A stretch of DNA of 64,000 nucleotides from Dudresnaya verticillata. Lineage: Eukaryota. The stretch covers positions 1,550,001-1,614,000 of the forward strand of contig OZ374561.1 in assembly GCA_977862235.1 (NCBI GenBank), read 5' to 3'. Positions 11,233 to 61,267 of the stretch are shown here, one piece after another. Positions within the stretch are counted from its first letter, which is position 1. Every line of letters begins with the position of its first letter. Both the position numbers and the translations under genes were made by a program. Below the pieces are notes generated by a model. It worked only from the letters and a program-made list of their open reading frames with translations. It had not been told where the DNA came from and ran no database searches.

Positions 11233-11234
11233 GT

Positions 11235-17747: not shown

Positions 17748-17749
17748 GG

Positions 17750-32006: not shown

Positions 32007-32010
32007 GGAT

Positions 32011-32723: not shown

Positions 32724-33075
32724 GTCGGGTTTCCCGTCTCGACGAGTAACGCCTATCGATTTGTGCGCGAAAGCCTCGACTGGCTGGATATTTCAGCACC
32801 GTGCCGGCCTTGTCGCGGCCAAGCCCCTCCTTTGTCTCGGCTCACCACAGCGAGGTGCCCAACTCTGTCCTTTGCGCCTAATGTGGCTTTCTCGCCGGAA
32901 ACCGTACCGTCTTTCGGCGCTTGGTGCCTTCTTGTGGAAGCGCGTCAGAACTTCAGCCGCGCCGCTACGCTTGGTCCGTGGTTAGTCTTCTCGACCGTCT
33001 AGGACCCTCGCCGAAATCGTTGCGGCTCAAGATCTCAAGGTGCCTCGACGTGGCTCAGTGTCGTAAGAGCTCATC

Positions 33076-36167: not shown

Positions 36168-36420
36168 TCAATCAGGATCTAAATCCTTATGTCCCTCATA
36201 CGAGCAACGTTCGTGGTTCACATCTATCCATGTAGCTATACAGCTCATGTATCCAGAATCTCGATTCTTGAATCATCTATCCATTTCCAGAGTCTTGACT
36301 CTTCCAGATTCATCCATTTCCAGAGTCTTGACCCTCCTATTTCCATTTATACAGTTTGTTGTTAGTCAGTTTAATAGATTAAAGGGGGGAATGGTCATTC
36401 CCATTCCCTATTGTTATACA
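36168..36420. mobile_element. 253-bp AT-rich insertion flanked by TAGGCCC direct repeats
   Basis: TAGGCCC at 36161-36167 and 36421-36427; internal duplication of ATCCATTTCCAGAGTCTTGAC. Confidence 0.6.
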
Positions 36421-36595
36421 TAGGCCCATTGGCCGTTCTTTTTATCGCTACTGCAGAGCGTAGTACTCGTCATCCACGGGGGGTTAACCTCGTTAGGCGC
36501 TTATTCGCAACTGGCGCCTGAGTTTGCAGGGCCAGATCTAGCCTCTTCTCGGCGCATTTGCTCTCCTTGAGCGATGTCCTAGCGTAAGACGCTTA

Positions 36596-41049: not shown

Positions 41050-43700
41050 CTAGTTTTTCGCCTTGAGCGCGGGCGACCGTGCTAACGGTGGTGGTGGCGG
41101 GAAGGGTCGTGACCCTGGTCTTGGTGACCGCAGCGCTTGCCTTGGCGCGTCGATGGGGTGATTCAGACCCGGATGAAATTGAACTTGCCTATTTCCGCCG
41201 GCGCCCGCGCCCATATTTTGACGCGCGCCGGTCGGTGGCCCAATCGCTTGGCCTGTCGAGGCCGGTCCATTTGCGAAGTAGGGTAAACGCCCAACGGTTG
41301 CCAACCATTCTTTCTTCTCATGCGAGAGCGCTTGGAACTGCCTCCTTTTTAGAGTCTCAAAAGACTGTTCGTCCGTACGCGCCAGGTGAGGGCAATTTGG
41401 CTTTTTATGGCCGACGCCACAACACTCAAAGCAGATATCATTTGGTTGGTCCTCGACCGTCTGATACCCAGAACGCTGCGTCCTTGTTGGCTGAGCCCAG
41501 GCGGGGAGCCTAGCATTGTAGTTTTGGATTACTGCATCCACTTCGCCATAATATGGCTGACCATAGGAGTATTGCCCGGAGGACCAGCTGTCTGATTGGG
41601 TTGCAGTTGATGGTGGCGCTTCTTCATCTATAGCCGCGCCGACGGCATCTTCGTTATCGTCCTCAGAGTCGCTGCTCTTTGAGGATTCCGAGTCAGATTC
41701 TCCCGAGCGCCTCGATTGGCGAATGAGAAGGGACCGACCGGGTTTTTTGTCCGTACCTTCGCGAGGGTTTTCTTATGCAGCGTCGAGGTTGCTTTCTTCG
41801 CTCGGTCACCGCCCACTAGGGCACGATGGGAATCCCCCTGAACGGTGGCGAGCTCGACATAGTCTGCCAAACGGGCGGTCCGTGGATCCAGAGAGGTAGT
41901 GCTTAGCAGCAGCTTCACCGCGGAGAGAAGACCCCTAATAAAGCTTGTTATTAATTCTTGCTCTGTGTAGACCCCAGCGACTCGTCGCGCCTGGTTTTGC
42001 AACCGTCGGGAGAAGGTGAGCTCGTCCTCATTCGGCTCTTGTGCCATAGTGTCCATATCAGAGGTTATCCTCTCGATGTAGACGTCTTTCGCATACGTGC
42101 GAAGAAGGTAATTGAAGGCCTCGACCCACACGGTGAATCCACCATTATCATCTCCTGCAGCGTCGAAGTTCGCTTCAAACATGTCTTTGGCATCTTTTTC
42201 CAGAAATTCTGGGATGACAAGGATAGCTGCTCCTTCACTAATGTGAGCTTGGTCCAGCTGTCGTTTCAGCGTTGCGAGAAATCCGATAATGGATACAGGG
42301 TCGCTTCCGTCGAACCGGCGACTTCTCATCGCGGTTTTCACCCGTTTTATCTTCTTCGTCGTAGTCTCCGTGACTTCCGGTCCCCGGTAGTCATCCAGGT
42401 TCAACAACCTATACCTCCTGTACGAAAGTACGGGTATGAAAGCAGGGTTCCTCGGAATTAATTCCTTTAAACCGGAGCGCCGGGGCCCCTCCCAAGAAGA
42501 CCAGGTGGATCGGGAGAAGGTTCGTGACTGTGGCGCTTCGTCCTCGGACGGACCTGAGGTAGGGTGTGCTTCCGGATGGGGGTTCCCGCCATTTCGATGG
42601 CTCGAATGCCTATCGGGGCGAGACCGAGGTTGACTCGGTCGGTGATTTGGACACCGGGCCATTTCCTCATCGTCTTGAGATTCTTGGCCTGACCCGTGAT
42701 GGGGTAACCTTCTGCGATGGTCTCGCGTGCCTCGAGGCACTGGCGAACGACGCCGCATTATCTCAGGGACGACTTCCCTTTCGCGGTTGAGTCGCCGCAT
42801 TTGGGCTGCTATCATAGCGACTCGACGCTTCTCCGCATCGAGCTCCTGTTGGAGGAGCTCGATGCGTCTGTCCTGTTCAACACAGCGAGTGTTGTCTACG
42901 CCCAACTGGGCGTCTGAAATAGCCAAAGCGGCTTCTTGTCTTGAACGGTCGGCATCCGTTGTAACCTGGTCTAACTCCTGGTGGATCAAGTCTAATTGGT
43001 CCCCCAAGGAATCGACCTGGGCTTGTAGGGTTTCGACCCGTTCTTCGTGTACTCCTCGAGAGGAGGTTTGTCGACATCGAGAATCGATCTCTTCTTGGAC
43101 CTTTGCCAATAATTGATCACCCCGGCGGGCTGTTGAGTCGTCGAAATAAAGCTTCACCCTCGAAAGGGTTTCGTCGGCTTGACTCTCGAGCAACGCTCGG
43201 ACGCTCGTGACGAGAGCATTTTCGATGCCCAATTCGACCATCTGGCCTATCTCACGTTCTGAGAAGCACCGTTGGTCGGTCGAATTGGCCTCCGTTCTCA
43301 TTGGCACCCCTATGTCCGGGGGCAATGATGACGTCGTCACATCTTCTAGGGCCTGTCCGCCCGTGCCGTGCTGGCTAGTCCGACTGATGGGCGGCGGCGG
43401 CATACTAGGGTCAGGACCCTCATTCGCGCCGTAGTTGGCGGCGCTTGCGGAAGCGGTCCTGACCGTATTTTCTTCATTCGGGACCTGTCCCTTCTCTGGA
43501 ACAGGTGGTTCGTCATCTCCTGGAGCGCCCGCCATTCGGGGCGGGCGTTCCACTTCTCCTACTAAAGGATTTTGGGCAAGAGCGGCGGCGGCCGCACGGG
43601 TTCTCGCCCCAATTGTCCTCACGGAGGAAAGACTGCCGGAACGGCTTCCACCACGACTGGTTAAACCCGGTCGGGTTGTATCGCCGTTGGAATTCGGCAT
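41050..43700 (-). pseudogene. gag: gag of E2 (frameshift near 41700)
   Basis: FDGSDPVSIIGFL; zinc knuckle CFECCGVGHKKPNC; N-terminal coiled coil. Confidence 0.9.
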
Positions 43701-44150
43701 GTTGAGGTCGGTCTTGACGACCTAAACGAAGGATATCGGTCCTGTGGCTGCCTGACGGGAATTTTTTCCAAGTGGGCAATCTTCTTCAGAACCGTCGTTC
43801 TCGGGGTTACGGGCGATTCTGACCACGCGGTCTTTCCGCAATGCGCGCCCGCACAGCCCGTACAAGGGACGTTTTTTTGTACAGGTATTACGATAACCTG
43901 TTGAGGTTCTCACGGACGTCAATCCACGACTAGGATATGCTCGTTGAACTGAATAAACCGCCACGGCGGTAGGGGTGCTTGCACTAGATTTGACGTCACT
44001 CCAACGCTTGGTATGAAGCTTAGGGACGACTAGGGTTTCAACGTCAGGTAGTCGAACCTTGAGATCTTGCAGGGAGAAAACTCGATCCTTGAAAATTCCA
44101 AAGTGATGGACTGACGTTGAGGTAATAAAGGGAACCGACCCAGAACCTAT

Positions 44151-44167
44151 TCTACGTCGGGAGACCA
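44151..44167 (-). other. Primer binding site of E2
   Basis: TGGTCTCCCGACGTAGA next to the LTR end ACTACA. Confidence 0.9.
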
Positions 44168-44168
44168 C

Positions 44169-44547
44169 TGTAGTAGTATGGCGCGACGATCCAGTAGCCC
44201 GCTAAACGGCAAGGACAGCTGTCCCGTGCGTGCACACACCCTAGCGAGGGTAGCTCAAATGGGGAGTTGGTAGAGACTTTGAGGGAAAAGGGAAAAAGGC
44301 TAGCGTGCCTGAAAGGAAGGGAAAAAGGGCGGCGCCACCCTAACACTCGTAGAGTACAAAGCCGTACGAGGCTAAAGCTTGTAAAGCACCTGGAAGGGGG
44401 AGTACGGTGAGCCCGTGTAGACCAAAGAAAGGGTACAGACCCGAAACCCACCGTAGGGTTCTATTCAGCAGACCCCTGCTAGTCAGGGGCGCAATAAATA
44501 TGGCGAAGGCCGAAAGCGCCTTCGCCGCTATTCCATTTCTAAGCTAT
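44169..44547 (-). repeat. 3' portion of the E2 5' LTR, cut by E4
   Basis: Ends TACTACA before the PBS; similar to the 3' half of the E4 LTR. Confidence 0.75.
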
Positions 44548-44680
44548 TGTAGTTAGCATTAATAATTACAATGAGGTAGTGAGCGGTCCTACTCCGCCCT
44601 GCGCACGTAAGGTGCTTATGACTCGGGCGCGCTCCTGCGCGTGAGATCGTGATAAATCAGCCAATCACGGCTAGCCATCT

Positions 44681-45444
44681 TGTGGTGCAACGGCAAGGGG
44701 GCCGCCGAAAGGAAGCAACTCGACGGGCCAACTGTACGATCGGCCCAACCAAACGAAGACACTTGGCCAATGAAGTCGCGCCGTCAGCGCGCGGACGGCG
44801 GTGAGCGCGCGAAAGTTTGAAACGTGGCCACCGACTGTACACGTGGCTCACACGTGGCCACCTACGACACCGAAGCGCACCACGTGTCCTGCTGTACATG
44901 TATGATCCGGTTCGCGGCCGGACACAAATGAAAATTGGATTTGGCCGCAAGGTGAATCAAAGGGAAGACAGTGGAAAAATCAAGGGGAAATCTAACTCAT
45001 TTGGCCAACCACTAACGAACAAGTACTTGGTTTAGTCTGGTAAGGGTACAACATTGGCCCGACACCGGAACACAAGTAGATATTATGGCCGACCGGAGTA
45101 ACCTCGGCCACCAGCTGTAGAATAGCTCTAGATTAGCTCTGATGGCCAATTTTGCGCCTACTTAGCTGGCCACACACTACGGCTCAGCCGAAAAAGGTAC
45201 GAAGCCGTCCCGCCAGAGGTTGGGAGTAAAGTTAGCAACTGAACCCCCGACTTGGCCATTTTCTGTCCTCATCACAGATTCTGGCCACGACTTCGTCTGC
45301 GCGCTCCCGCTCTACCACGCTTGCTACCGGCGCGCAGGTCCGTTCTACGTTCTGGCCATTTTTAGGTCAAATCCGACAGGTCTTTGCGGTCTTCTTGGGG
45401 TCTCGTTGGGCTGCCGTACGCGGTGGTGCTCCAGAGATACTACA
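44681..45444 (+). repeat. 5' LTR of E3
   Basis: Direct repeat of 57217..57980. Confidence 0.97.
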
Positions 45445-45445
45445 C

Positions 45446-45462
45446 TGGTCTCCCGACCTAGA
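45446..45462 (+). other. Primer binding site of E3
   Basis: TGGTCTCCCGACCTAGA. Confidence 0.92.
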
Positions 45463-45920
45463 AGAGCAGTTGTGATTTCGGCCCTATTTCTCCGTTAGAA
45501 GACTCGAGTAGCTGGCCGTAGTCGACGACGGCCAGTGTCTTCCTCACTACTGTGGTGGCCAAACCCCGCAAGTTGCAGATTGCGGGTTAGTAACTACCTG
45601 GTTCCGCAATCTGATTGTCAGTTTACTTCAACCCGTTTCTGTGGACACAATCTAGGTCACAGGCCAGATACCCGTCGCTTGGTTCGTTCCCAGGTTGGCT
45701 ACTTTGCACACTCGCTGGTTCGTTCCCAGCACAGGGAGCTTTGCACACGGTAGTGTCCGGCCTTGGTATAGGGACTATTAGCTTGGAATCGTCCGTTCCC
45801 ACCCCTGTGTTTTGCACACAACAGTGTGGTTCCCAGGAAAGCCACTTTGCACACGTCGGCCACGGGTTGGCCACGAATCGCTAGAAGTATCTGGCCAATC
45901 AGTCTCCGACGTACTTCGTC

Positions 45921-48253
45921 ATGTCTTCTTCTTCTTCACCGGCAGGCGGACAACCGCAGTCCTTACAAGGCTCGGCTCCGCCTCCCTCCACGTTGGGCGC
46001 TCCCATAGGCCCACCCCTGCTCCTGGCCTGTATACACCGTTATCGGGGCCAACACCAGCTCCTCCGGTCCCGTTATCGACTGGCCAGTTCATTCCTCCGA
46101 CAGTTGGACGAGCAGGGTCAGCTTCCACGGCAGGTGCCGTCCGTAATGAGGTACCGCCGCGGACAGCCCCACCGGTCTCACCGTGGCGCACGCCACCGGC
46201 GGCCACAGCGCCGCCGATGACTCCGCTGGCCGCTCCTGCCAATCTTCGTCCACCTCCAGTTGATGATGATTCCCAGCCAGAACACGACGTTTGGTTGGGC
46301 CGGCAAGAGTTCTACCAGTATAAGCGACGTACGGCCGAGTGGCAATAAGAGGTGAAGAACCAGTTTGGCGAGATGCAAGTCAAGATGTCCACCACGGCTC
46401 TGATTAGGGAACAGCAGCTTCGCCAGGAGATACACTCCGTCATCCTAGACGGTGCACTTACGGCCATAGCAGAACGTTATGATGAGCGTCTGGAAAAGGT
46501 CGAGAAGGCCGTTTTTTCTTCCGCCGGGAAGGGGAAACTCCCTACTCCTCCTGGCCAGACAAGGTCCGAATCCGCTCGGATAACACCGGCCAATCGACCA
46601 GTCTTGGCACCACAGGTGGGTGAGCCGGTAGCAGCAGTGCAGAAGAAATTGGACAAGTTGCAAGATGAGATTACAGCCTTGTCGCATCCTGACAAGGCTC
46701 GGCCAAATATTCCTGAAGAAGGGGTACCACCGCAAGAGGGCAACACTCAGAACAGTGGTGCCGCCCCCCGGCCTGCTTTGGTTGGACCTTCGGGGCCAGT
46801 TAATGCAGGGGAACCTTCCATGGGATAAACTGGCCAGTTGGATGAAACAGGTCTTCCTGTCGCGATGATGGGGCCGATGGAACCAGGTCGAGAGCCTCTC
46901 AAGACCCTCCAAGAACCCTTCCGGCAGGTGGTGGATTACCGGACCCACCGCCTTTTGGATACCCGGCCAACGATGACTATGGAGGATGCGCGGCGCTTGT
47001 CCCGGATGACTCGCCAAATCCGGAACTTGTTCCCGCAGATGAACCCATTTGATGGCCGACGTCCGATAGAGCTCCTGTCCTTCCTCAAGGAGTTCAAGGA
47101 TGCCTGTGATGGGACAAACGTCCATGAAGGGGCCGCTCTGCGTCTTCTGGCCTTCTTTACGGCCGGTGATGCGAAGAGGTTCTATTCTGGCCGAATGTCC
47201 CGTGGTATAAGGTCAGTACACTCCATCTTTCCGATGAGGGGATTTTCACAAATCAGCTGGCCACACTTAGTCCACGCTCTCATCAAGCGCTACTGCACCG
47301 AAGATGTTCTGGCCGCTGCGTTCGACAAAGTGGCCAGAAGCAAACAGAAAGATACCGAAACAGAAGCGGAATTCGCTGACCGGTTAGGGGACGCGGCGCT
47401 GTCGTGCGCCGATGTCTTCTCGGAGAACACCCTGATCACCCATTATGTGAGGGGTTTACCTTCGACCACTCGTTCGGCCGTAGCTGAGAAACTTATGCAG
47501 ATGCGGCCGGAGGAGATGGACTTCTCGACGGTGCGCCGTATCGCCATCGCCGAGGGGGAGATACACAGAGCCTACTTGGCTTCTGCACGTCCCAAAACAA
47601 GGTCGGCCAGTTCTCGAAGTGCGTTGGTCATCCCTACCCTTGCGGCCGAACCTGCTTGGCAGGCGGAGCCCGAGGATATAGCGGCCAACTATGATGATCC
47701 GTTTGACACCATACCGGTTATGGCCATTACCCCTGGCCAGAATGCTGCTCAGCAAACACCGACGATGACGCCGACCACGCCGTCACCGGCAGGGTCGGTG
47801 TCCGGGGGTAATACCCCGGACCCACTCCGGAAACCTCCGACGTTAACGTCGGATGAGCTGGCCAAAGTCGCTATTATGCTACGCAGTGACAAAACCAGTG
47901 CCCGTTGTTGGGGTTGTCGCGAATGGGGCCATGATTTGTACACTTGCGTGTACTTACCACTGGCTATCAGGAACTTGTTTGCCATACGTAACTTCCGCTT
48001 CCGAGATGAATTCGCTAGATGGCACCCCGAACAGTTTGCTGGCCGAGGTGGTCGAGGTTACCGCCCCGACCAAAGGAATGTATCCTTTGGGGATGGAAGG
48101 GGACGCCCTCCCCCTCAGGGAATACTCCGTCGGCCACAACAATCATCTTCGAACCGTGGGAATCGGCAGTCCACGTTTACGCAAGAACATCCATTGGATG
48201 AGGTGGTGGCCGATGTGGAGTCCGATAATTCTTCGTTGGCATCGGGAAACTAG
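45921..48253 (+). pseudogene. gag: gag of E3 (frameshift and stops in the 5' part)
   Basis: FDGRRPIELLSFL; zinc knuckle CWGCREWGHDLYTC; ends GGGAAACTAG. Confidence 0.88.
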
Positions 48254-51200
48254 CCGGGCCGAGATCTTCGGTCGTGATCCCGTTGCCCGTACACGTCCCA
48301 AAACCGGCTAGTCTCGTTTCAGTTAAGTCGTTTCCTTTTAGTCATCTCCATTTTTCTTCTTTGTTAGACATTGCATGGCGTTTGGCAACGCCAATCCAGG
48401 TTTGGTCAACCCATGATTTGACCTACAACTGCCCATTTTCATCTAACGGTCTGGTGTGGTCACCGCCCTGGAGGTCTGGCCATACTACAACATCATCCAC
48501 CCCCACCACAAACGATGGGGTTTCTTTGCCAACGAGTGGCCGCAAATCATCGAACGACGAACAGAAAGAAGAATCCCAACTGGCCGGTGTTTCATCAAGG
48601 TATGGTCTGCATCCTGGGTGGGGCCAACTATACCCTTTCGGGTTCATTTGGCCTTACAATGACTGCCTTGTTACCCGGGCCAATTGTCTTAGACACGTGC
48701 TCGGGTTGAAACATCATCCGGGTGGATGCGTTGCCTCCCAACTGGAAGGACAACGCACTTGGGTTGACGTCCCCGCCTCTTTTGGGGGACGCCAACCAAC
48801 GGCCGATTCATTTTAGAGGGGCCATTTCCTTAGTCGTGCGCTTAGGCCATCACTCATATCGAGTGCCGTTCCTTATCGCCGACCTTCGCTTCGCCGTACC
48901 CGTCTTGCTGGGTACGGCATTTCTGAACACGCACGTGGATAGCATCCAGTGCCGTGGACAGACCGTGCACTTAGTGCGCGGTGACGTCCTTCCTTTGTTA
49001 CCCGACAGCGCTTCGATGGCTCTGGGGGCAGAGCCAACCGCTGCGAAGGGGCCCCGCCTCCGGGTAATCCCAATCCGGCCAGTACAGAGCGCAAGACACC
49101 GCGACACTACGCGGCCGCTGTACGCTTGACGAAAGGTCTGACCATACGGGCAGGTCAACAGGCCACCGTGTCTGTTCGCAGCGATGGCCGAGGATTATGT
49201 GTGTTGGAGCCCAAACATTCTTTGAGCTTCAGACACCATACGCGGATGGCCAATGGAGTTGCCGAAATTCGGCCGCAGAAACCCCTCCAGGTAATGCTGG
49301 CCAACTGGGGAAGAAAGGATGTCTAACTGCCAAAGGGTACCGTGGTCGGCTATGCTGTCCGCCACCCCATAGCAATCCTGACGCCACACCGACGGAGTTT
49401 GGAGAATATGGCCTGTGTACTTCGGCTTACTCCACTTGTGGATCAGGATAGTAGTCAAGTGTAAGTAGAAGAATCTGGCCAAGAAAGAGGTGAGCCTTCG
49501 GAACCAAAGGTACCCAGACAAGAGGCTCAAGAATGGCGGGATAAGATCAAGCTTAATCATATCCCGGACAAGAAACAACGCGAAAAGATAATGGCCATTC
49601 TAGAGAAACACAGTGCAATGTGGGACGGTTCCCTGGGACAGATCATGGCCACCGAACATCGAATAGATTTGGAAGATGGAACCCGGCCAATAAGAGCGAT
49701 ACCCTACCGACAGGGACCAGCGTTACGCGCAATCGCAGAGGCCGACATTAGGAAGCAGTTGGAGGCCGGGGTTATAGAGCCATCGCACGGAGAATGGGCC
49801 TCGCCAATTGTGATGGTACCGAAAAAGGATGGCACCCTTCGTTTATGCGTCGACTACCGCCGACTCAATGCGAAGACAGTTGGTGACGCGTATCCACTCC
49901 CGCGCATGGACGATTGTATAGACTCCCTTGGGGATGCGGCCGTGTTTTCAACCTTGGACTGCAACTCCGGATATTGGCAAATACCAGTGGCCGAGGAGGA
50001 CAAGGATAAGACGGCCTTCACCTCTCACTTGGGAACATTCAGGTACAATCGAATGCCATTTGGCTTGAAGAACGCACCGGCCACATTTCAGCGTGCGCTT
50101 GACATAGTTCTCTCTGGTGTCCGATGGCAGATCTGCCTCATCTATCTGGACGATGTCATCGTGTTCTCCAAGAATGCGGAAGATCATCTTGGCCACCTAG
50201 ACGAGGTACTAACTTTGTTGAAGGCGGCCGGCATTACGTTGAAGTTGAAGAAGTCTTCCTTCTTTCAGGCCAAAGTCGATTATCTGGGTCACGTAGTGAC
50301 TCCTGGAAAACTGAGTATGGCCATGCAGGGTACCAAGGCAATACAAGAGGCCGACTTTCCAGGATCCCTTACGAACTTCGGTCTTTCTTGGGAGCTTGCA
50401 ATGTCTACCGAAGGTTTGTGGCCAAATACTCCACTATCGCACGGCCACTTACGCGCATGTTGTGCAAGGATGCCGAGCCAGACTTCGAACGGCCAACAGA
50501 GGAACAACGTCATAGCTTCGAGAAACTGAAGGCCGCTCTCGTTTCGCCGCCGATTCTGGCCTTACCAAGATACGGCCGGCCATATGTGATCGAGACTGAT
50601 GCCAGCGCCTACCAGATTGGATGCGTCTTGCTCCAAGAACAAGAGGACGAGACGTACCATCCCGTGGGATATTGGTCTCGTTCTCGGACTTCGGCCGAGA
50701 AGAATTATTCGGCCACGGAGCGCGAGTGTTTGTCTGCGGTGTGGGCCATTACATCATTACGGCCATATGTTGAAGGTACCAAGTTCACGGTCCGTACGGA
50801 CCATGATGCCCTCCGTTGGTTGATGTCGCTCACTGATTCGTCTGGCCGTCTTACAAGATGGAGATTACGTCTGGCCGAGTTCGATTTTGTGATTGAGTAT
50901 AAACCGGGGCGTAAGAACCAAGTTCCCGATTCCCTGTCCCGCTTGGTGGCCCCGCAAGAGAGCGGAGATGCACGGCCAATAGATGATACTGTAACTGTAT
51001 TGGATGGTACCCCCTCTATTCTCACGACCACGCGGGCTCGGAGAAATCGAGAAACTAATATGGCCGGCAGGAGAGAACGAGACGATGGAGTCGACGCTTG
51101 GGAAGAGGAACATTTGATGGCCGATTATACGGACTATGGCCGAGCGGAAGCCTTCAGTCGTGCACAAATGGAAGGGAAGACAGCAGAGGCTCTCCCAACA

Positions 51201-52683
51201 CCAGTTACACAGACTGAAATAATAGAAGGCCAGAAAAGCGATGACTTCTGCCAGACCATTCTCGCCACGCGAGCCGGCCTGGGACGACCCAAGAAACCTC
51301 TCTTCTTCGAAGGGGTCGATGGGGTCCTCTACAGACGTTGTCCAACAGATGGCCAGAAACAAATAGTGCTTCCAGCCTCGTTGCATGGCCGGATTCTTCG
51401 GTTGTGCCATCATGCCGTTCTGGCAGGTCACCCTGGCCAGAATCGAATGTATCAGACTCTTCGACGGACACACTATTGGCCGCACATGGCCGCTGACTGT
51501 CTAGCGACGGTTCGGAACAGTTGGCCATTGCGCCAAAAACCGGATTCGTCGCCTCCGAAATACATCGAAGTTACAGCTGCTCCCGGCCAGTCAACCATTG
51601 GAGACTGTGGCCATGGATCTTCTCGGGCCGCTCCCCAGAACTAAGAAGGGGTTCGAGCACATATTAGTCATTACATGCCGCTTCTCGAAGCTGACTCAGG
51701 TGGTGCCTCTGACGAAGATAACCGCCTATAATGTGGCCACGGCGTTTTGCGTTCACTGGATTTTCAAGTACGGTGCACCAAAGACAGTTCTCACTGACAA
51801 CGGTGGGCAGTTTGCGGCCAAGTTTTTCCAAGCGGTCTGCCGACAATTGTAGGTGGCCAATATCTTCACGACAACATATCATACGCAAACAAATGGCCAG
51901 GTGGAAAGGTACAATCGAACATTGGCCGCAATGTTGAGGAGCTACGTGAATGAACACCAGACTGACTGGGGTGAGTACGCTGCGGCATTGACGTATGCTT
52001 ATAATTGCCATATACATCGCTCTACTGGAACCACGCCGTTTGACTTGGTTCTCAGTCGGCCGCCGAGTCCATTCTCACTTGAAGCTACGTTAAACGGGCC
52101 AAAGCCAACAGGGACTGTGAAAGAAGCGTTCTTACGCCGATTATCAGAGGCCGTGGATAAAGCTTCGGCCAGTTTAACTCGCACACAAGCGCGCTACAAG
52201 AAGGACTTCGACCGCTCGGTGAGAACGGGGAATAAAATGCTGGCCGCTGGAGGGTTTGTCTTCCTAGACAATCCAGAAAAGCAGCCAAAGAAACTAGAGC
52301 ATCATGCCCAGGGGCCATACAAAATTATAAGCAACGATGGCCGTACGTTCTTTATTGACAGAGCTGGCCAACTGGAGCGTGTTAGTTCGGACCGAGTAGT
52401 AGCCGCGCCCAGGCCACAAGGGCAACCGGTGGCTACGGAGACAATGGCTAGCGCCGCGTTGGGAACCCTTCCAGAAGGAGTCGCTGCGTCGGCCGAGGAA
52501 TATGTCATTGACAAACTCACGGACATGCGCGAGGATTCAACTGGCCAGCGGTGGTTTCAGGTCAAGTGGTATGGGTATAATGGCCGAACTTGGGAACCCG
52601 AGGCTCTTCTGCCGGCCACGTTGGTGTCCCGCTTCTTCGCGCGCATGAAGCGCCGAGCTACGCCGGGCCAAAACAGTTCGTGA
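48250..52683 (+). pseudogene. pol: pol of E3 (PR, RT, RH, IN, chromodomain), several disablements
   Basis: LDTCSG, YLDD, DAS..TDH, GHPG, TDNG..QVERYN, YVIDKL..FQVKWYGY..TWEP. Confidence 0.95.
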
Positions 52684-53591
52684 GGTCAACCTCGACATGG
52701 CCAGGGAAGTAAAGCGAGAGGAGTCAGAGTCTGGCCAAAAACTTGCGAAGCCGGAGGTGCGGGGTGGTTGTGGACAGAGGAAGGAGGTGCTGGGTGGCAA
52801 AATACCCCGGCTGGAACCTCGCCACCAAAAACACGACGGCGGTGTTTAGGTTTAACCCAGAATAATGTAAGCTGGCCAATCATGTGTGAGAAAGTCGCGG
52901 CCAGCGAATCTCCCGGTGTACGCCGAAATTCAGTGGATGTAAATGGACGGTAGAAACTACCTCATCTTTTGCGGCCTTTTCCAGGTAACTCTAATTCCCA
53001 CATGTCGTGCTCCCGAGCGGGGGTTTGCGCAGAGTGAGAGAACAGGGGAAACAACGCTAGCCCCTACCGACAGCAAGAAGGAAATTGGCCAAGGGAGAAG
53101 ACATGGCCAGATAAAGTGTTTGAAGCCGATGAGACAGAGAACAATAGCTGGCCGTTACTACTACTTCGGCGCCTTGAAGAAGGCAGCCCCACGCCAAGGC
53201 CCCTTCACCACTCGCACTGGCCATTTTTGTGCTTTGACTTGACCACCAACTCCCTTAACCCGTTTTTCCCGCCGTGCTCATGAGCATTGGCCAGAAGCAA
53301 GACCTACTACCCGGACTCACAGAGGCCATACGGCCCCATTTGGCTAATAACTGGCCATGATAACACACAACATTTTTTTGAAGGTAACCAGTGCACTTTA
53401 ACTCCAGACTGGCCGGACAGACTTAACCCCCAAAAACAAGGGGGCTGTCCCGCCTTAGAAGCACTAACTTGGCCACCAACTTTTGATAACGCAAACACAA
53501 GACACAGAAAAACACAAGACTAACAACAACTCATTGGCCAGCATAAGAGCACAAGACGAGCTGGTCAACTACTAAGACAACACCTTAACAA

Positions 53592-56500
53592 CTAACGGCC
53601 ATAAGGACTTGGCGAGCGAGGAGAACCCGAAGCATAGGGCTCTCTGCTCCTTGACTGCGAAGGCGCACGAGGCGCTGTCGCGGGAACACGAGGGGCCGTC
53701 GCAGGAACGGTTGGCGGCGTCACAAAAGGCGAAGTGGCCGGCAGAGATAAGCTTCCAGGAACCTGGCCGGGCTGAGCAACATTGGCCACAGGAGTCGGCG
53801 GAGCCGACACAATCGGACGAGCTGGCTCTGGTTGATAATCGGCCGGTCGAGATAGTGCACGTGGATGACTGCTGATGTCCCCAGCGTGAGATGGCGTGGG
53901 GGTTGTGGCCGGTGCCACTGAGACCCCAGGATATTGCGGCATACCCGGCGCAGGCGTAAGCAAGGAAGACAGAGGAAACTGAGGCATCTGGCCAAAGACG
54001 GAGGGCGCATAAGCTGCGCGCAAACTGGCCAGCTGATGAAACCCACGATTGCGCTCCATGTCGAGTAAGGCCTGTTGATTATGCGTCTCGTCGCACCAGC
54101 GATCGCGCTGCCTCTTCCACTCAAGACCCTGCTCGTTAGATCTGGCCAGCGTCTCCTTTGTGGCCTGCAACTCGGCCTCGACTTGGTCTTTATGCCTTCT
54201 AACATTGGCCAGCCGCTCTTTGCCCCGCCTGATCACTTCTTCCATTTCATCAACATGACGACGAACGCGGTTGAGTTCATCGGTTTGGCCACGCTTTGTA
54301 TCGCTGAGACGGCCGAGGCTCTGGTCCAGTTGCCGCAAGACGTTGGCCAAAGACATTTGGTTAACATGGCCACGCACAGAAAGTTCGGCCACCACATGCG
54401 GATGAGGATGCAAGATGCTGCCCGCACGATGGAAGCGTCGTTGGCCACTTCAACTCCAAAGCTACTGCCATGCCGAAAGGTCACTTGTTTGTTCCAGTCG
54501 AAACCGCAATACTTCTCATCATGGCCAGCCCTGTGTTGAAACAAATGGTACCGGTGCCGCACGGTGTCGGCTAACTTCTCATACAGCGACACAACATCTG
54601 GCCAATACACATGATTGAACTGATGCTGATGCTCCTGGCTGACGGGGAGGAACGTAAGATCTTTCACCACTTCACCTCGTCGAGCAATGGCCTGAGGAGA
54701 CATCCACCACATTCTCTTCGACGCCTGTGCTTCGTAGCTGAAGAAGATACTGGCCATTATGTGCAACTCTACGACAGCGGTTTCCTGGAAGCACTCAACC
54801 CAGGTGGGGTCGAGCGCATGGCGACGATACTGGCCAACAAAATAATAAGCCAGCGGGCTAAGCAGACAAGCTTCTCCCTTCGATAGCCACTCCCTCCAGA
54901 GAAAAGCGGGAACGCTAGGGAAGTATTCGACAGAGGGCCAAAAACCTTCTTGGCCACGAGTGCTGCCGTGATAGATATAGCTGCCACCCGTGCGATGCGC
55001 CAACCAATCTCCCGGCGCTATGATGCGACGAAGGTCTGTACTGGCCATTTTCGCGTTTCGCACGGTCGTCTGCTCCCAGCGCTCAAGCATCCACGCGTGA
55101 GGGAAGGCGTAATACCATGTGGAAGTATGAGGGTACACATTAGACTTGCCCTTGAACATCAGCCAAGCCCCGTGGACGAACATCACGTCCTGCGCGCACA
55201 ACAAGAAGGCGCGGTCGCACTCAATCTCCAAAAGGGTCCAGTAGAGATGGCCATTGTCATGCGATTCGCGATATTGATGCCACGCCTCGTTGAGAGGGCA
55301 GTTGCTTTCCCGCACGCGAATCATGTCCAGCTTGTCACTATTGGCCACCAACTCGGCATAAGGAATATCCACTCGAGGACACGTTGGCCAGATGGAAGTC
55401 CCGGGCAATCGCTCATCCAAAACTACTCGGGGCCATCATGATCTTCTAGGCCCGGTGGGAGGTCGGAACGGAAAGGTACAGCAGCACGAGTGTGCGAAAC
55501 TGGTTCACAGTCCGGATGCGTTGGAGCAGAGGGGCCAGCACTTGAAATTGGGACACCCTGGCCAGCCTTAGTGATATCTAAGGTCTCTTCGCGCGGAACA
55601 ACTTCCTTTGCGCGGGGATCTTCACTCTGACCAGATGACTTAGGCGGCGCGCCTGCAGATGGCGTGGAAGAAGACTGGCCAGTTTTAAGTTCGTCGGCAT
55701 CAGGAAGCAAGGCCACGAATCGACGACGATCGCCGTCTGACATAAGATTGGCCGGCGGGATTGGCGTAGAAGCATCGACGTCAATAACTTCGTCGCGAGA
55801 TGTCTGGCCAACTTCCTTAGGCGGCAGCCGCTGCTTCTTCGTGGGGGGACCCTGAACAGCGGGCTTGCCGATGTTTAACTTGGCCAGCTCACGCGCATGA
55901 CTAGCGGCCGTCGGCATGAAAGGTGAAGGCGCTGAGCGCAGTCGTGGCGTCGATTTCTTCGAAGCGCTCGGAGTGGCCGAACGTGACGACTTGCGTGGCA
56001 CAGGAATATTGGCCAAAGCTTCTGCAGCCTTCTGCCCCAACTTGTATCCTTTCTTCTGTTCTGGCCCAACCTTCTCAACTCTTCCAGGTAACTCCTGCTT
56101 GCTGGCCAATACTTCTTCTCGAGCGGGCACAAATACCATGGCCGAATCAGCAACCTCGGGTTGAGCCGCAGCTACTTCTTCGGCTGCTGCCGTGGTAGCT
56201 TGAGTAACCAGAGGACGAGAGATGGCAATAACAGCCTTCTCAACAGCACTGGCCAATGGAGGTGGAGTAGGATTAATGGCCGTTGGAACCGAAGTGCTTG
56301 CGACCGGCACCGACTTCTTCGCCTCGAGGCGCTTCACTTCGGCCTGCACCAACCCTTTCTTGGGGGCTTCTGCTACCTTCTGGCCAATTGTTCTCCCCTC
56401 TTTCGCTGACGGGCCAACAACCGGAGATGCCGTCGGCTTACCCTTTTCAAGTTGGCCTGCTGCCGCCGCTACCTCCTCCGACGAGGATGATGGGACGATG

Positions 56501-57039
56501 GTTACGCTGCGCATCACCTTGGCCTTCTGCGCATCGGAAAGTTTCTTCTTTAGACCGGTCATTTGATTCTCCTCAGCTTCGCGCCTCTTTTAGCTGGCCG
56601 CTATCTCCTGCATTAACTTGTCGGTGCCAATGTCGGGCGTAGCTGGCGACATGGCCGGAGTAGCGGAGGCAGCAACACTCTTCTTCTGGCCAGTCTTGAT
56701 GGACTTCTCCGTTGCGGTAGTGGTTGCAGTAACTGGCGGGTCGGAGGGCTTGCCACTTGGGATCTTGGGCGCTGGGGCGGAAGATGCCCTGGACGCCTTC
56801 ATCGCGCGCGGCCTTGAACTCTGGCCAATCTTCTTCGTGGTCGCTTTCGCTCTGGCCACGGCCACTTCTTCATCGCTCGACGGCGGCGTAGATGATGAAC
56901 TGGAAGAAACGGTCGGCCGTACAGTCTTCTTCTTGGCCGATGCGGTGCGGCGCGGACGCGCTTTCGCAGGGCCACCCGCCATCAAGAGCGACTGGCCAGA
57001 TGCGCACGTGGAGACCGAAGCAAGGGTGAACGCGCACAA
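53592..57039 (-). pseudogene. Antisense accessory gene(s) of E3: low-complexity N-terminus, conserved aromatic domain (54233..55420), coiled coil, Pro-rich tail
   Basis: Four abutting minus-strand ORFs; FPSVPAFLWREW..LSPLAYY..WVECF..YEAQ..RMWWMSP aligns with the E1/E2 ORFs. Confidence 0.72.
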
Positions 57040-57205
57040 GTTGGCAAGAAGTGAGGACGTGCGCGCGATGTTTTGGCAAGTGTTGGTAAGGAGAAGTGTG
57101 CTGTGGCAAGATGGTGATGGCCGGGTGCAGGGAGAGGGGTAGCGCGCGGATCACGCGCGCTGATATTGCCAGATGAAACCCTCCCGGCCAGGAGTCCGCG
57201 CTTGC

Positions 57206-57213
57206 GAAGGGGG
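57206..57213 (+). other. Polypurine tract of E3
   Basis: GAAGGGGG, 3 nt before the 3' LTR. Confidence 0.75.
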
Positions 57214-57216
57214 CTC

Positions 57217-57980
57217 TGTGGTGCAACGGCAAGGGGGCCGCCGAAAGGAAGCAACTCGACGGGCCAACTGTACGATCGGCCCAACCAAACGAAGACACTT
57301 GGCCAATGAAGTCGCGCCGTCGGCGCGCGGACGGCGGTGAGCGCGCGCAAGTATGATACGTGGCCACCGACTGTACACGTGGCTCACACGTGGCCACCTA
57401 CGACACCGAAGCGCACCACGTGTCCTGCTGTACATGTATGATCCGGTTCGCGGCCGGACACAAATGAAAATTGGATTTGGCCGCAAGGTGAATCAAAGGG
57501 AAGACAGTGGAAAAATCAAGGGGAAATCTAACTCATTTGGCCAACCACTAACGAACAAGTACTTGGTTTAGTCTGGTAAGGGTACAACATTCGCCCGACA
57601 CCGGAACACAAGTAGATATTATGGCCGACCGGAGTAACCTCGGCCACTAACTGTAGAATAGCTCTAGATTAGCTCTGATGGCCAATTTTGTGCCTACTTA
57701 GCTGGCCACACACTACGGCTAAGCCGAAAAAGGTACGAAGCCGTCCCACCAGAGGTTGGGAGTAAAGTTAGCAACTGAACCCCCGACTTGGCCATTTTCT
57801 GTCCTCATCACAGATTCTGGCCACGACTTCGTCTGCGCGCTCCCGCTCTACCACGCTTGCTACCGGCGCGCAGGTCCGTTCTACGTTCTGGCCATTTTTA
57901 GGTCAAATCCGACAGGTCTTTGTGGTCTTCTTGGGGTCTCGTTGGGCTGCCGTACGCGGTGGTGCCCTAGAGATACTACA
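57217..57980 (+). repeat. 3' LTR of E3
   Basis: Direct repeat of 44681..45444. Confidence 0.97.
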
Positions 57981-58361
57981 CATCTCATTAGCGTCGTGCT
58001 GTTCCCAGCAATGCCATATGGAGTGGCCAGCAATGCACTGGGCCTTATAGTGCGTCCGCACGTCCGGCGCCTTACAGGCGCATGCCGCGCGCAGTATTAC
58101 CCGCGCATTACAGGCGCAAAACACGTGTACGTGCTTATAGCCCCTGGCGGCTCATTGTACCACACCTTGCCGTCTACGACGTATCTCTCTATTCAGCACG
58201 GTACGCCCTTCCTTTTCCCCCTTTTTGCAGGGCTTATAGCCCTCCTAAGTCTCTAGCACCCTATTACCGAGCCAACTACCACGCGAGTGGGATTGGGCTT
58301 TCTAGACAGCTGTCGTGCTGTCGTGTCGTCTGTTTGTGGCTTGAAAGCCATTCTACTACAG

Positions 58362-58378
58362 TGGTCTCCCGACCTAGA
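58362..58378 (+). other. Primer binding site of E4
   Basis: TGGTCTCCCGACCTAGA after ACTACA. Confidence 0.9.
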
Positions 58379-58762
58379 ACACGTTCTCAGGGTCGGACCC
58401 CTTTTTGTACCTTACCCTCGGCGGGTCGCGTCAAGACACTCAAGACAGGACGGTTAGTCCGTTAAGATTTCAAGAATCGAGCATCGAAGGGTAAAACCCT
58501 AGTCATCAAATTGTCGACGGTTTCTACGCTGTATACCAAGCTCCGGAGTTGCGTTAAATCTTGTGAGCAAGCAATCTACAATTAACGGTTTCAAACCGTC
58601 CCCCGAAGTACGCCTCAACGGCGGAATAACGCACGGGTTGAGCATATTTCAACAGGTTTACCGTGCAACCTGTGAAAACACGTGTAACAATACGGTTCGG
58701 AACCGTCAAGGAGAATGGGAGAATTTCCACGCCATACCAACGGTTGAACCGAAACCAAGAAG

Positions 58763-60784
58763 ATGCCAACCTCGAATGGTGACACTACCCGGCCCGAGGT
58801 GACGAGCCGGGGAGCCAGCCGGACTGGCAGTCTTTCATCTATAAGGACTATTGGAGCTCGCACCCGCGCGGTTTCAACCGCCCTTGTAAGAAATCCGGAG
58901 ACGGATGGACCGGGACGCCCGTCACGCATGACGGACGCCCCGGCTGGAGAAAAAGTACCTGGACCAGGTAGGGACCACGCCCCGGAAGGAGAATATAAGG
59001 TTCGAACGGTGGAGGAAGTCCCCACCAACATTGGGGAGATCGAGGGTTCGAACCCGAGAACGATGCCGCCACCTTTGGCTTTAGCCAGTATACAAGCAGA
59101 GGGCGGACGAGCCCTAGAAGAAGAAATATCGGCACCCACGATCTTGGGATTGCCGACAGGAACGAAGTACAATTCGCCAGGGGCGCGCCGCTTCACGGAG
59201 TGTGAAATAGGACGCCTAGTCGAATTAGGAATCGAGAGGTCATTAACGAAGAGCATCGTGGCGCTCCTGGAAAGCCAAGCCGATGATACCTTTTCAAAGG
59301 TGAAGAGATATTTCGATGAGGCGTCGGCGCGCCGTGACGACCGCCTGTTGGCTAAATGTCAACAAGAGATCGAATCTCGATTCCGGCAGGGTCCTCTTTC
59401 AAGAGGATTAGAAGAAGAAAGGGTCGAAACCCTGCAAGCACAAGTTGATTCACTGGGTGACCAGTTGGACAGCCCATGGAAATCTTCACACGCTTACCAA
59501 GGTTACGGACCTTACTAGAGAAGAAGCCGTAATGGCTATTGAAGACGTTCGTAGAAACGTAGACGACACCCGGTGTGTCGAACAAGATAGAGCTATCGAG
59601 CTCTTAAGACAAGAGCTTGAGGCAGAAAAGCGGAAGGTAATATTGCTGGAAGCAAAGATGCGGCAACTCAGTCGCGAGAGGGATTTAATCCCTGAGGTTG
59701 AGAGACAACGCTCCCCCGTGTCCCGTGGTACAAGGGACCGTCGTAGGACGTTTCCGAGACGTGACTCGGATGGGGAGCCTGGGAATGACGACTTGGGTCG
59801 TAGGAGACCTACGCACAACAGATGCGATTGTCGGAAAACGCACGGTTCCACCGTATGTCGAAATGCAACAAGTTCCCGTCAAGACCGGCTTGCAAGCCGT
59901 CATGATGAAGAGCCATCCCCAAATCGGTCAAACCCAGCGCCGATGCAATCGGATGAGGACGAGCCAACGTCTAAAGGTCTCTCAAGATCTTCTGGGAGCC
60001 CCTGGTGAGGACCGCGTCGAGCCGGAATTAAGGAGTTAACTCCGCGAAATCCGGCGTTCATACAGGTCCTATCGTACCGACGATATCGATTGTTGAACAC
60101 GGACTCATATCGAGGACCAGAAGTGACTGAAGCCACGTCGAACAAAATCAAACGAATTAAATCCGTGATGAGGAGTCGAAGATTCGATGGGCGCGACCCA
60201 GTTGCCATAATTGGCTTCTTAGCCACCTTGAGTCGACAGCTTGATCAAGCTCAAGTGAGCGAAGGCTCTGCCATACTGGTCATACTAGAGTTCCTTGAAA
60301 AGGATGCCAAAGGTATGTTCGAAGCGAACTTTGATGCGGCCGGAGACGATAACGGCGGATTCAACGAATGGCCGGAAGCCATAAACTATCTGCTGCTTCC
60401 CTACGCCAAAGATGTGTACATCGAGAAGATTTCTTCAGAAATGGGCACAATGACTCAAGAGTCAGATGAGGATGAGGTAACGTTTTCAAGACGTCTGCAA
60501 AACAAAGCGCGACAGGTTGCCGGCGTTTACTCCGAACAGGACTTGATAACGCGCTTTATACGCGGATTGCTACCAGCGGTCAAACCACTCCTGATCATGT
60601 CTTCATTAGACCCTCGCTCAGCGCGATTGGCGGACTAACTGGAGCTGGCGACAGAGCAAGGGGATTCGTACCGCGCCCTAGCGGGTGGTGGACGTTCTAA
60701 GAAAGCGAGCTCATCGCTACCTCAGAAAACTCTGGCACGGGTGAAGACACACAAATCAGGACGCGCACTCCTCATTCGCCAAAA
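58763..60784 (+). pseudogene. gag: gag of E4, disrupted and truncated
   Basis: MPTSNGDTTRP.. matches E2 MPNSNGDTTRP..; FDGRDPVAIIGFL; homology to E2 stops near 60783. Confidence 0.9.
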
Positions 60785-61040
60785 AACACAGATTTCCGGG
60801 TTTTCAGAATCTGTGTTCCGAATCAGACTGAAAAAAAGGTTCGTAGAATGGCGATTTTGTTATGTTGCTGGACTGGGGAGACGGAGCGGAGAAGAATAGT
60901 GTAATCTGTTTTGCGATATCACGCGCGGTTGCGGAGTTACAGCATGCCGCATATACGGGTAAACGGCCCCGAAACTTTTGTGAAAGTTTCGAAAGTTTCG
61001 GAATTTCCGAGTTCAAATTTACCCAGAAATTGCACTGCCG
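60785..61040 (+). mobile_element. Probable left terminus of a second, related TIR DNA transposon
   Basis: AACACAGATTTCCGGGTTTTCAGAAT resembles the TIR end AACACTAATTTCGGCGGCTACAGAAT; shared CGGAGTTA..GCATAT, GAAAGTT and CCAGAAATTG blocks. Confidence 0.55.
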
Positions 61041-61267
61041 CCTGCTGCCCTCCCCGGCGCGCCTGGCAGCGCACCGACGCTCGTGCTTCAGCACGCTTGG
61101 CCCCGCTCGCCGCATCCCCGGCCCGCCATGAGCTGTGATCAAGGACACAGTGCCGCCCCGCACGACTGGTACTGCCTGACTGCCAGGGTAAATCTGGGGG
61201 AAAACCAGTCGTGCGCGGCGCTCACGCACTCACGTGCTGGTACCAGTACCACCCCTGCCCATGCCCA

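Follow-up and report, generated by a model that had tools for sequence, protein, structure and literature searches.

VANDAL elements are Mutator-like DNA transposons of Arabidopsis, and their VANC motifs are described, in the parts of the accounts cited here, as 8-9 nt long, non-palindromic, mainly non-coding and multiplying by tandem repeats (PMC5735166; PMC13547354). Spm TnpA and other transposase-derived proteins are, according to the cited portion of a preprint, sequence-specific activators (bioRxiv 10.64898/2026.08.24.746577). In cyanobacteria, HIP1 and the alternate HIPs are presented in the cited sections as genome-wide cell marks tied to methyltransferases (PMC5861425, PMC4390886). Retand and related plant Gypsy elements carry an antisense ORF in the long region between pol and the 3' LTR, possibly with a DNA-binding product (PMC11963269, cited in part). 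Two questions are touched upon here, namely how retrotransposons discriminate their own copies from parasites or rivals, and what role extra antisense ORFs play, the latter left open in the same account. A literature search at the level of titles and abstract openings, with most subscription papers and supplements outside its scope, found no published retrotransposon code of the kind described below, and no dispersed packaging-signal system in retrotransposons emerged from the literature searched.

A decayed retrotransposon dense in YGGCCR

The locus was analysed within a 64-kb window, i.e., the whole stretch of DNA under study. E3 (44681-57980) is a decayed Ty3/Gypsy LTR retrotransposon of the chromovirus type, with paired LTRs ending in TG...CA and a 5-bp target-site duplication. 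Its parts, and the related elements that share the window, are as follows.

1-12648, minus strand: E1, a related chromovirus that continues past the left end of the window; right boundary approximate
303-2171, plus strand: antisense ORF of E1
33000-44680, minus strand: E2, a related element with a 4-bp hairpin code; left boundary approximate
33468-35192, plus strand: antisense ORF of E2
44676-44680, plus strand: left target-site duplication, CATCT, identical in sequence to 57981-57985
44681-57980, no strand: the E3 code, 177 dispersed YGGCCR with a mean gap of 76 bp
44681-45444, plus strand: 5' LTR of E3, 764 bp, TG...CA ends, 13 YGGCCR
45446-45461, plus strand: tRNA-type primer-binding site of E3, starting with TGG
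45921-48253, plus strand: gag of E3, interrupted by stops, 27 YGGCCR
48254-52683, plus strand: pol of E3 (protease, reverse transcriptase, RNase H, integrase, putative chromodomain; Pfam, tblastn to E1 pol), with stops and frameshifts, 56 YGGCCR
52684-53591, no strand: non-coding spacer of E3, 13 YGGCCR, 10 of them TGGCCA
53592-56982, minus strand: antisense ORF of E3, at least 3 breaks, 46 YGGCCR in 53592-56976
57217-57980, plus strand: 3' LTR of E3, 13 YGGCCR
57981-57985, plus strand: right target-site duplication, CATCT, same as the left copy
57986-61200, plus strand: E4, a partial, hairpin-rich element; right boundary approximate

The domain order of E3, gag followed by protease-RT-RNase H-integrase, was read from Pfam and from tblastn to E1 pol. 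Pfam matches in pol include RVT_1, RT_RNaseH, Integrase_H2C2 and a weak Chromo (E 9e-5, 22.8 bits versus a cut-off of 25.1, which the E1 chromodomain exceeds), and tblastn aligns this last region with the E1 chromodomain. A CCHC zinc knuckle is visible close to the C-terminus of Gag. Primer-binding sites nearly the same as that of E3 also adjoin the LTRs of E1, E2, and E4. The two E3 LTRs show 13 differences, and no RT relatives of E3 were found in viral contigs.

YGGCCR occurs 177 times in the 13.3 kb of E3 (13 per kb) versus 53 times in the remaining 50.7 kb of the window (about 1 per kb), the corresponding numbers for GGCC being 246 and 187. The sites comprise 87 TGGCCA, where 4.7 would be expected from dinucleotides, 70 TGGCCG/CGGCCA, and 20 CGGCCG. 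Density lies between 8.3 and 17 per kb in all nine E3 sub-regions, which cover the LTRs, gag, pol, the spacer and the antisense ORF, and falls to 0 and 1 site in the two flanking kilobases. The manual counts that first drew attention to the motif are exact (8 GGCC and 6 YGGCCR in 50641-51000, none in 6121-6480, 14 YGGCCR in 52681-53620). No enrichment is seen in the three relatives that E3 has in the window or in a DNA transposon there, nor in any of 80 metagenome loci or any of 16 RT-bearing G001 contigs; a paired-motif scan of G001 returned no TGGCCA-dense contig. As far as the 64-kb window shows, the enrichment is thus not genome-wide. The earlier note had described it as apparently confined to this element, which stands for YGGCCR within the window but not for the phenomenon, as E1, E2, and E4 display different symmetric signatures of their own.

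The excess persists when codons are preserved (104 YGGCCR versus about 31). With 300 synonymous-codon shuffles each, gag contains 23 sites versus 6.1 (maximum 13), pol 36 versus 11.8 (maximum 19) and the antisense ORF 45 versus 13.9 (maximum 23), and the excess is seen in all three frames. Places at which the protein permits YGGCCR are taken in 104 of 193 cases in E3, versus 22 of 264 in E1, E2 and a neighbouring methylase ORF together. Within RT, five of nine sites fall on amino-acid contexts encodable by at most 20% of the ~160-220 aligned homologs. A codon or amino-acid artefact is ruled out as the source of YGGCCR by the shuffles. A tandem-repeat origin is also ruled out: E3 holds only one 21-bp two-copy tandem repeat, and site flanks are diverse.

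Sites are spaced more evenly than chance would give (gap CV 0.74 versus 0.95 +/- 0.07, p 0.0005), with no long-range periodicity apart from the 3-bp codon period. At separations of 6-15 bp there are 8 GGCC pairs versus 42 expected, and still 8 versus 22.9 after correction for flank preference; the shortage reaches significance at 9-15 bp alone (6 versus 19.8), the count at 6-8 bp being 2 versus 3.4. The 9-15 bp interval is the one over which two palindromes would fold onto each other in RNA. Permitted coding sites are used in 102 of 161 cases without a near neighbour, versus 8 of 47 with one (p 1.5e-8). One-mismatch neighbours of the GGCC core occur near control rates in E3 and are not depleted; repair-type conversion of such neighbours has left no sign there. 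Since E3 sites rarely stand within 15 bp of one another, selection is favoured over mutation bias, and the signature was likely built site by site through selection.

Signatures of co-resident and related families

E1 contains 77 CGYC-N3-GRCG sites versus 5.9 expected. As the two halves are strictly complementary in 76 of them (G-U in 1/77), E1 has a true single-strand hairpin code, a point against a simple double-stranded DNA-binding dimer. A fifth pair is avoided (6 versus 19), the loops on the genomic strand are A-rich and G-poor, and both flanks are A-rich. The best word in E2 is GGNW-N4-WNCC (46 sites), and E4, with ~70% identity to E2 in gag, has a similar one, GG-N-T...A-N-CC. The E1 and E2 codes were missed by ungapped k-mer scans and recovered only by gapped-palindrome scans, so that further families may hide codes escaping these templates. 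A greedy search missed the E3 word because an order-3 background absorbs YGGCCR.

Relatives from two other data sets have either perfect 4-bp hairpins or the words CCNCGNGG, GGAC, and CCAG, never that of E3, and outgroup elements have no signature. Under codon shuffles, a hairpin excess is found in most of the clade; two in-clade loci (L004, L009) have no signature and a third (L003) a weak one. In family B, 204 of 302 aligned sites retain CCNCGNGG, versus 23-45% for seven permuted controls, the N positions of this word being free, without covariation; GGAC is conserved no better than GGTC/GACC. Hairpin families show a 1.7-4.6-fold excess of perfect Watson-Crick stems and only 1.0-1.5-fold for G-U, a pattern that fits DNA. 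The nearest relatives of E3 have 11-36 stems of at least 8 bp (less than 1 expected). Compensatory hairpin changes between related copies arise at rates like those in hairpin-free control families.

Co-resident families differ from each other in three data sets (the window, G001, and contigs sharing a record-id prefix), and each enriches its own signature only, as judged by codon shuffles. The perfect 4-bp hairpins of most families are probably the ancestral state; E3 and one other branch have fixed words instead, a switch that is surprising whichever reader applies. The proposal that the motif is a family-specific cis barcode is therefore well supported: it passes the composition, codon and same-window tests, spacing is selection-like, and sister families have mutually exclusive signatures.

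Proposed reading of the code and competing explanations

Because co-resident families differ and each enriches its own signature, an element-encoded reader is preferred to a host one, and we hold with reasonable confidence that YGGCCR is a selected family code read by a factor that the element encodes. The two ends of E3 sites vary independently (97 complementary versus 92 expected), no hairpins surround them in symmetric or shifted registers, and A abounds in the 5' flank as T does in the 3' flank (p 2.7e-4), giving an A-rich 5' flank on either strand. Judged from these sequence features, reading probably takes place on a short duplex, for which double-stranded DNA is the simplest candidate. 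Pointing instead to strand-specific reading, if only as a hint, GGGCCA occurs 16 times and its reverse complement 3 times (p 0.004, several pairs having been compared).

In the mechanism that we propose, a dimeric protein encoded by E3 itself would read YGGCCR, the orphan antisense-ORF protein being the predicted reader, and each family of the chromovirus clade would have its own signature. The reader would coat own-family copies only, at about one site per 75 bp and with an exclusion zone of ~15 bp. Coating would give a private benefit denied to other families, most likely continued expression despite host silencing. This exact version, with YGGCCR selected, a duplex read by an element-encoded dimer, the antisense protein as reader and a private benefit, is put forward tentatively. 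The broader proposal of a clade-wide private self-recognition code, spread over all element parts including coding DNA, with an orphan accessory protein co-evolving as its reader and switches between hairpins and words, falls just short of an even chance.

The antisense ORF is common to the whole clade and orphan. In E3, its product has an extended N-terminal part of low complexity, which includes a single NLS-like KKQR, an orphan domain (54449-55420), a predicted coiled coil and a proline-rich tail, the start codon and coiled coil being inferred. This architecture recurs in P0151 and G001 contigs and is linked to the E1/E2-type family by HHalign (probability 67%, E 5e-5). The closest homologs of the E3 ORF reside on contigs with hairpins, not YGGCCR. 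Antisense proteins are 17-23% identical where RT is 69-71% identical; Gag diverges fast too (38-41% identity, over the aligned part, between E3 and the nearest G001 Gags). Pfam, a PDB sequence search and the ESM Atlas revealed no recognisable DNA-binding domain, the first two gave no match to VANC, and no transposase similarity appeared; in the ESM Atlas, the domain fell in unnamed clusters only, with low recognition. Among 537 candidates, none was a longer homolog of the antisense domain. Two AlphaFold2 models were poor (pLDDT 35 and 42), and Foldseek with the better of these low-pLDDT models found no match. On present sequence evidence, the antisense-ORF protein is the best candidate reader and Gag a real alternative.

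Among the alternatives, reading of the codes on genomic RNA or single-stranded cDNA survives best, although we consider it unlikely. The codes would then be dispersed packaging, export or dimerisation signals for Gag or the antisense protein, sister families using local hairpins and E3 using self-complementary hexamers, any two of which could pair in one RNA copy or across two. The strict covariation and avoided fifth pair of E1, the A-rich loops and flanks on its genomic strand, and the hairpin excess across most of the clade all speak for it, as do the position of the E3 close-pair shortage within the hairpin-forming range and 300-nt folds in which 256 of the 644 bases in E3 cores are paired to a different core. 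RNA viruses, moreover, have known dispersed packaging signals (PMC6281560, cited in part). However, G-U pairs are nearly absent from E1 and barely in excess elsewhere, the free N positions of CCNCGNGG in family B would mismatch in RNA duplexes, and folded RNA places E3 sites neither within stems nor in exposed loops.

Neutral molecular drive is improbable. Template switching by the family RT would perfect short inverted repeats, or mutation would be slower at paired or methylated sites, as has been proposed for HIP1 of cyanobacteria; TGGCCA could then be a CG-decay product of CGGCCG. The Watson-Crick-only stems and the long perfect stems in the nearest relatives of E3 agree with this, the independence of Y and R in E3 matches stepwise CG decay, the window also contains a DPPY methylase ORF, and for HIP1 a model of methylation-dependent repair is available (PMC4390886, in the section cited). 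Mutation bias, however, predicts neither the short-range avoidance in E3 nor the avoided fifth pair in E1, and one-mismatch precursors are not depleted. In addition, E3 shows no general CG loss (CG observed/expected 0.95), 1 of its 13 LTR differences hits a GGCC, about the expectation without protection, and nothing links the methylase to E3, its own element lacking YGGCCR.

A host DNA- or RNA-binding factor, for which E3 would have amassed sites so as to borrow host activation or mimic self, is a shade less probable again. The E3 site does resemble an ordinary homodimer site with graded flanks, and the reader role of element proteins is a prediction, but the three related elements and the DNA transposon of the window lack YGGCCR enrichment, and every family would require a different factor, several of them reading hairpins. 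Recent arrival of E3 from a species with a YGGCCR-rich genome or repeats, the motif being a donor signature, is very improbable: the E3 RT does occupy its own branch, none of the 219 other rows exceeding 75% identity to it, but a donor-wide bias would not yield short-range avoidance, and two further data sets also contain co-resident families that are unlike one another, so that family-level codes exist without transfer.

Under the favoured reading, that of an element-encoded factor, each family provides a predicted target for its own proteins. If the reader is the antisense protein, anti-silencing by sequence would be extended from plant DNA transposons to retroelements, and the fast-evolving readers would make up a new family; with Gag in that role, a retrotransposon would have a dispersed packaging code. 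Should the clade-wide code be true, families would reserve trans-acting help, anti-silencing or packaging, for themselves, amounting to self/non-self discrimination by retroelements, with nucleic-acid readers that form a new, re-programmable family.

Comparison with described systems

The analogy with VANC drawn in the earlier note holds as logic and fails in detail, the VANC motif being, in the cited text, non-palindromic and borne mainly in non-coding tandem repeats by a DNA transposon (PMC5735166). As in VANDAL/VANC, a short motif crowds one family and is scarce in its relatives, motifs differ between families, and the reader is proposed to be an additional protein of the element, with a variable region and a coiled coil. 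Unlike VANDAL, whose motifs share one orientation, the E3 clade consists of LTR retroelements and not Mutator-like DNA transposons, and its palindromes or hairpins are dispersed singly, also in coding DNA (where YGGCCR of E3 is equally dense), without tandem arrays. Element-encoded, sequence-specific activation of cognate copies, as described for Spm TnpA, is predicted for the E3 clade; Spm TnpA belongs to DNA transposons and is transposase-derived, whereas the antisense protein lacks transposase similarity.

As in Retand, the E3 antisense ORF lies between pol and the 3' LTR. Retand is, in the part cited, a non-chromovirus with TRP28 domains and family-specific tandem arrays, whereas E3 has a putative chromodomain and a dispersed code; its antisense ORF has no Pfam match to TRP28 (PF04195) at E up to 1, nor do 14 aligned relatives show one. 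The single-stranded RNA virus packaging signals, as portrayed in the cited account (PMC6281560), are likewise numerous short sequence-structure motifs that span an entire genome and lie partly over coding sequence. In contrast to them, E3 sites form no stem-loops; that geometry is found in E1, E2, and others, where hairpins are Watson-Crick-only and stems rather than loops are conserved (E1, E2).

With HIP1, the E3 code shares a conserved GC-rich palindrome that is about 15-fold or more over-represented within and between ORFs and swapped in some lineages, YGGCCR being strongly over-represented in all frames and in non-coding DNA. The genome-wide distribution of HIP1, and of the DNA uptake sequences, further genome-wide cellular marks compared alongside it, is absent from E3, the other 50.7 kb of the window staying at about 1 per kb. 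Unlike HIP1, as the cited sections depict it, YGGCCR is confined to one mobile family, is far denser, with about one site per 75 bp, and hairpin codes alternate with it.

E3 and its neighbours in the window

Four related LTR retrotransposons, E1 to E4, lie in the window around a DNA transposon; E3, the element under study, is a chromovirus-type Ty3/Gypsy element.

1 to ~12648, - strand: E1, E3-related element
12649-32013: DNA transposon with terminal inverted repeats
14760-17807, - strand: 1015-codon ORF with a DPPY N6/N4 DNA methylase domain and a ParB-like motif
24087-24806: DUF7869 transposase-like ORF within the DNA transposon
~33000-44680, - strand: E2, E3-related element
44681-57980: E3, LTR retrotransposon with LTRs, target-site duplication and coding domains
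from 57986, + strand: E4, E3-related element, partial

The E3 LTRs (764 bp each, 98.3% identical, TG...CA ends) are bounded on both sides by the duplication CATCT. The + strand carries gag, protease, RT, RNase H, integrase and a weak chromodomain, and the region separating pol from the 3' LTR holds a long ORF on the - strand; every gene is interrupted by stops or frameshifts. E3 is inserted between E2 and E4, which are arranged head to head (44167-58362), with primer sites facing outward and ~890 bp apart once E3 is subtracted; another inverted pair of LTR ends (11235-11458 and 32497-32723) resembles this arrangement. All four elements have a nearly identical primer-binding site (45446 and 58362, + strand; 44167 and 11232, - strand), which may resemble the end of a tyrosine tRNA.

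The DNA transposon, whose DUF7869 ORF is probably 'Sola-like', is 19 kb long, with terminal inverted repeats of ~300 bp (96%), a second, internal inverted pair (12951-13431/25564-26035, 93%) and, alongside the latter, a 117-bp tandem unit (25487-25749). The ParB-like motif of its methylase ORF is of the DGxHR type; the nearest Atlas clusters of this ORF are phage and bacterial methylases, and an amino-methylase carried by a eukaryotic transposon is worth separate study. The C-terminal 95 residues (14763-15047, - strand) are 35% identical to 22352-22651 (+ strand), part of the 22196-23620 ORF; the two ORFs thus have a small domain in common.

YGGCCR sites across E3

The earlier note described E3 as saturated with the palindrome YGGCCR, and each of its manual counts proved exact on recount. 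E3 holds 177 sites in 13.3 kb, versus 53 in the remaining 50.7 kb of the window. All sub-regions have 8.3-17 sites per kb, and this density drops steeply at the two ends of the element. Enrichment also survives codon control, since observed counts in gag, pol and the antisense ORF (23, 36 and 45; shuffled 6.1, 11.8 and 13.9) top all 300 rounds of synonymous shuffling, which preserves protein and codon usage, in all three frames. The site consists of an invariant GGCC core with graded ends: TGGCCA occurs 87 times (4.7 expected from dinucleotides, 3.5 from control elements), TGGCCG or CGGCCA 70 times and CGGCCG 20 times (5.8 and 2.8 from control elements), GGCC words with a single correct end are mostly 2-3-fold enriched, and RGGCCY is not enriched in E3.

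The spacing of the sites, which is more regular than random, suggests selection. For GGCC pairs separated by 6-15 bp the count is 8 and the expectation 42, those at 16-45 bp being at the expected number; non-coding DNA, gag-pol and the antisense ORF each show this deficit on their own. Protein-permitted sites are used in 102 of 161 cases without a near neighbour, versus 8 of 47 with one. Once flank preference is allowed for, 8 close pairs stand against 22.9 expected, the significant portion lying at 9-15 bp, a distance that would suit a protein footprint as well as an avoidance of self-folding. Five of nine RT sites sit on amino-acid contexts uncommon among homologs, so that changes in the protein probably brought in some of the sites. 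One-mismatch neighbours of the site are not depleted in E3, and 1 of the 13 LTR differences falls in GGCC, a weak test in which no post-insertion protection is apparent.

The E3 sites read like duplex-type sites. Their two ends vary independently, no stem was found around them, and the flanks 2-8 bp away are A-rich 5' and T-rich 3'; the asymmetry between GGGCCA (16) and TGGCCC (3) is, however, contrary to duplex-type reading. In local RNA folds, cores are exposed no more than other GC tetramers, and core-core pairing is frequent. The gag and protease region (46000-49000) has 23-29 short hairpins per kb, versus 10-20 downstream, with slightly fewer YGGCCR; the extra hairpins are possibly the relic of an older hairpin code.

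Codes of related families

The earlier claim that enrichment is confined to E3 holds for YGGCCR and TGGCCA in the window, and TGGCCA enrichment was absent from 80 metagenome loci and the 16 RT contigs of G001, a bacterial genome bin; it fails in that other families, as a gapped-palindrome scan revealed, bear other codes. E3's nearest relatives with DNA (69-71% RT identity) have 0 TGGCCA sites in RT. Close RT relatives occur as contigs within G001 (2.5 Mb). Long ORFs are intact in most of its 16 RT contigs from eukaryotic retrotransposons, and these contigs are evidently host repeats misplaced in a bacterial bin. E3's nearest relatives in G001 (L082, L117, L118 and L119) contain 11-36 perfect stems of at least 8 bp (expectation <1), with short loops and inside open reading frames.

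The E1 code, CGYC-N3-GRCG, has 77 sites against 5.9 expected, with 11 elsewhere in the window; pol, gag and the antisense ORF hold 13, 13 and 11, versus ~2 in shuffles. In 76 of the 77 sites the variable positions of this code are complementary; the pair immediately outside the stem is avoided (6 versus 19), and sites keep at least 19 bp apart. Together these features indicate a hairpin whose 4-bp stem closes a loop of 3 nt. E2 prefers GGNW-N4-WNCC (28 versus 10 in coding DNA), and E4 bears a similar word. Perfect 4-bp hairpins are ~1.3-2.5-fold enriched in E1, E2, E4, all eleven tested in-clade G001 contigs and several metagenome families, and not in E3 (142 versus 132); stems with one G-U show barely any enrichment. 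Two further comparison sequences, L083 and L084, prefer CTC-N6-GAG (23 versus 3 and 20 versus 3).

One branch without hairpins bears the words CCNCGNGG (62 versus 26, 36 versus 13, 24 versus 11, 43 versus 17), GGAC (164 versus 111, 133 versus 81) and CCAG (139 versus 93, 105 versus 71). Discovered and scored on identical sequences, the strong family words far exceed the best outgroup matches, GGAC and CCAG less clearly. Between copies, CCNCGNGG is kept in 204 of 302 cases, versus 23-45% for controls. In the corresponding comparison for hairpins, control families lacking them gave similar rates, and GGAC was kept no better than GGTC/GACC. Codon shuffles on 38 sequence sets, hand-chosen to represent the tree, gave a near-diagonal comparison of signatures with families. 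Neither hairpins nor words were found in six outgroup elements or in the window's DNA transposon; exceptions within the clade are L004 and L009, which have no signature, and L003, which has little. Hairpin families are widely scattered on a quick RT tree (220 rows), suggesting that hairpin codes are probably ancestral and that word codes arose at least twice.

Possible readers and known systems

As the signatures of co-resident elements are family-specific, mutually exclusive and evenly spread, their simplest explanation is quite probably that each family encodes a reader specific to its own signature, the benefit being restricted to copies that bear it. The candidate is the antisense protein. 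The folded part of the E3 antisense ORF has a single match among 1.8 billion representatives (P0151, E 3e-6), itself with one further relative, and no Pfam or PDB match; three homologs are present in G001. Complete homologs are built alike, with a disordered region, the orphan domain, a coiled-coil-like stretch and a charged tail, and a weak link exists to the E1/E2 antisense family, which is widespread across the clade. The ORF outpaces RT in divergence (17-23% versus 69-71% identity), and Gag is likewise fast-diverging (38-41%). That ORF and code are linked is no more than suggested, because the length of the outgroup contigs may not suffice to reveal absence of the ORF.

We tentatively favour recognition of the signature as duplex DNA by the antisense protein, since E3 and family B, the relatives with CCNCGNGG, resemble homodimer sites and hairpins avoid G-U; marked copies would then likely be shielded from silencing. 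A close rival, although itself unlikely, is that the codes serve packaging or dimerisation at the RNA level, as the E1 code is a true single-strand hairpin. Weaker than both the DNA and RNA readings are molecular drive as the writer of the signatures, which is improbable, reading by a host factor, slightly more so, and a donor signature, very improbable indeed.

In the literature searched (listings and abstract openings, few subscription journals, no supplements), no account of codes of this type in retrotransposons was found, and there is a real chance that they amount to self-recognition of a new kind among retroelements. The spread of E3 sites resembles that of dispersed viral packaging signals (PMC6281560), and the pattern resembles that of the cyanobacterial palindrome HIP1, although dense YGGCCR, unlike the genome-wide HIP1, is limited to E3 within the window (PMC5861425, PMC4390886). 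The gene layout is like that of Retand, a plant Gypsy lineage with an antisense ORF, but E3 is without TRP28 (PMC11963269). The logic of the codes in this clade is similar to that of VANDAL transposons and their anti-silencing protein VANC, from which E3 differs in the class of element, in where its motifs lie and in their not having arisen from tandem repeats (PMC5735166).
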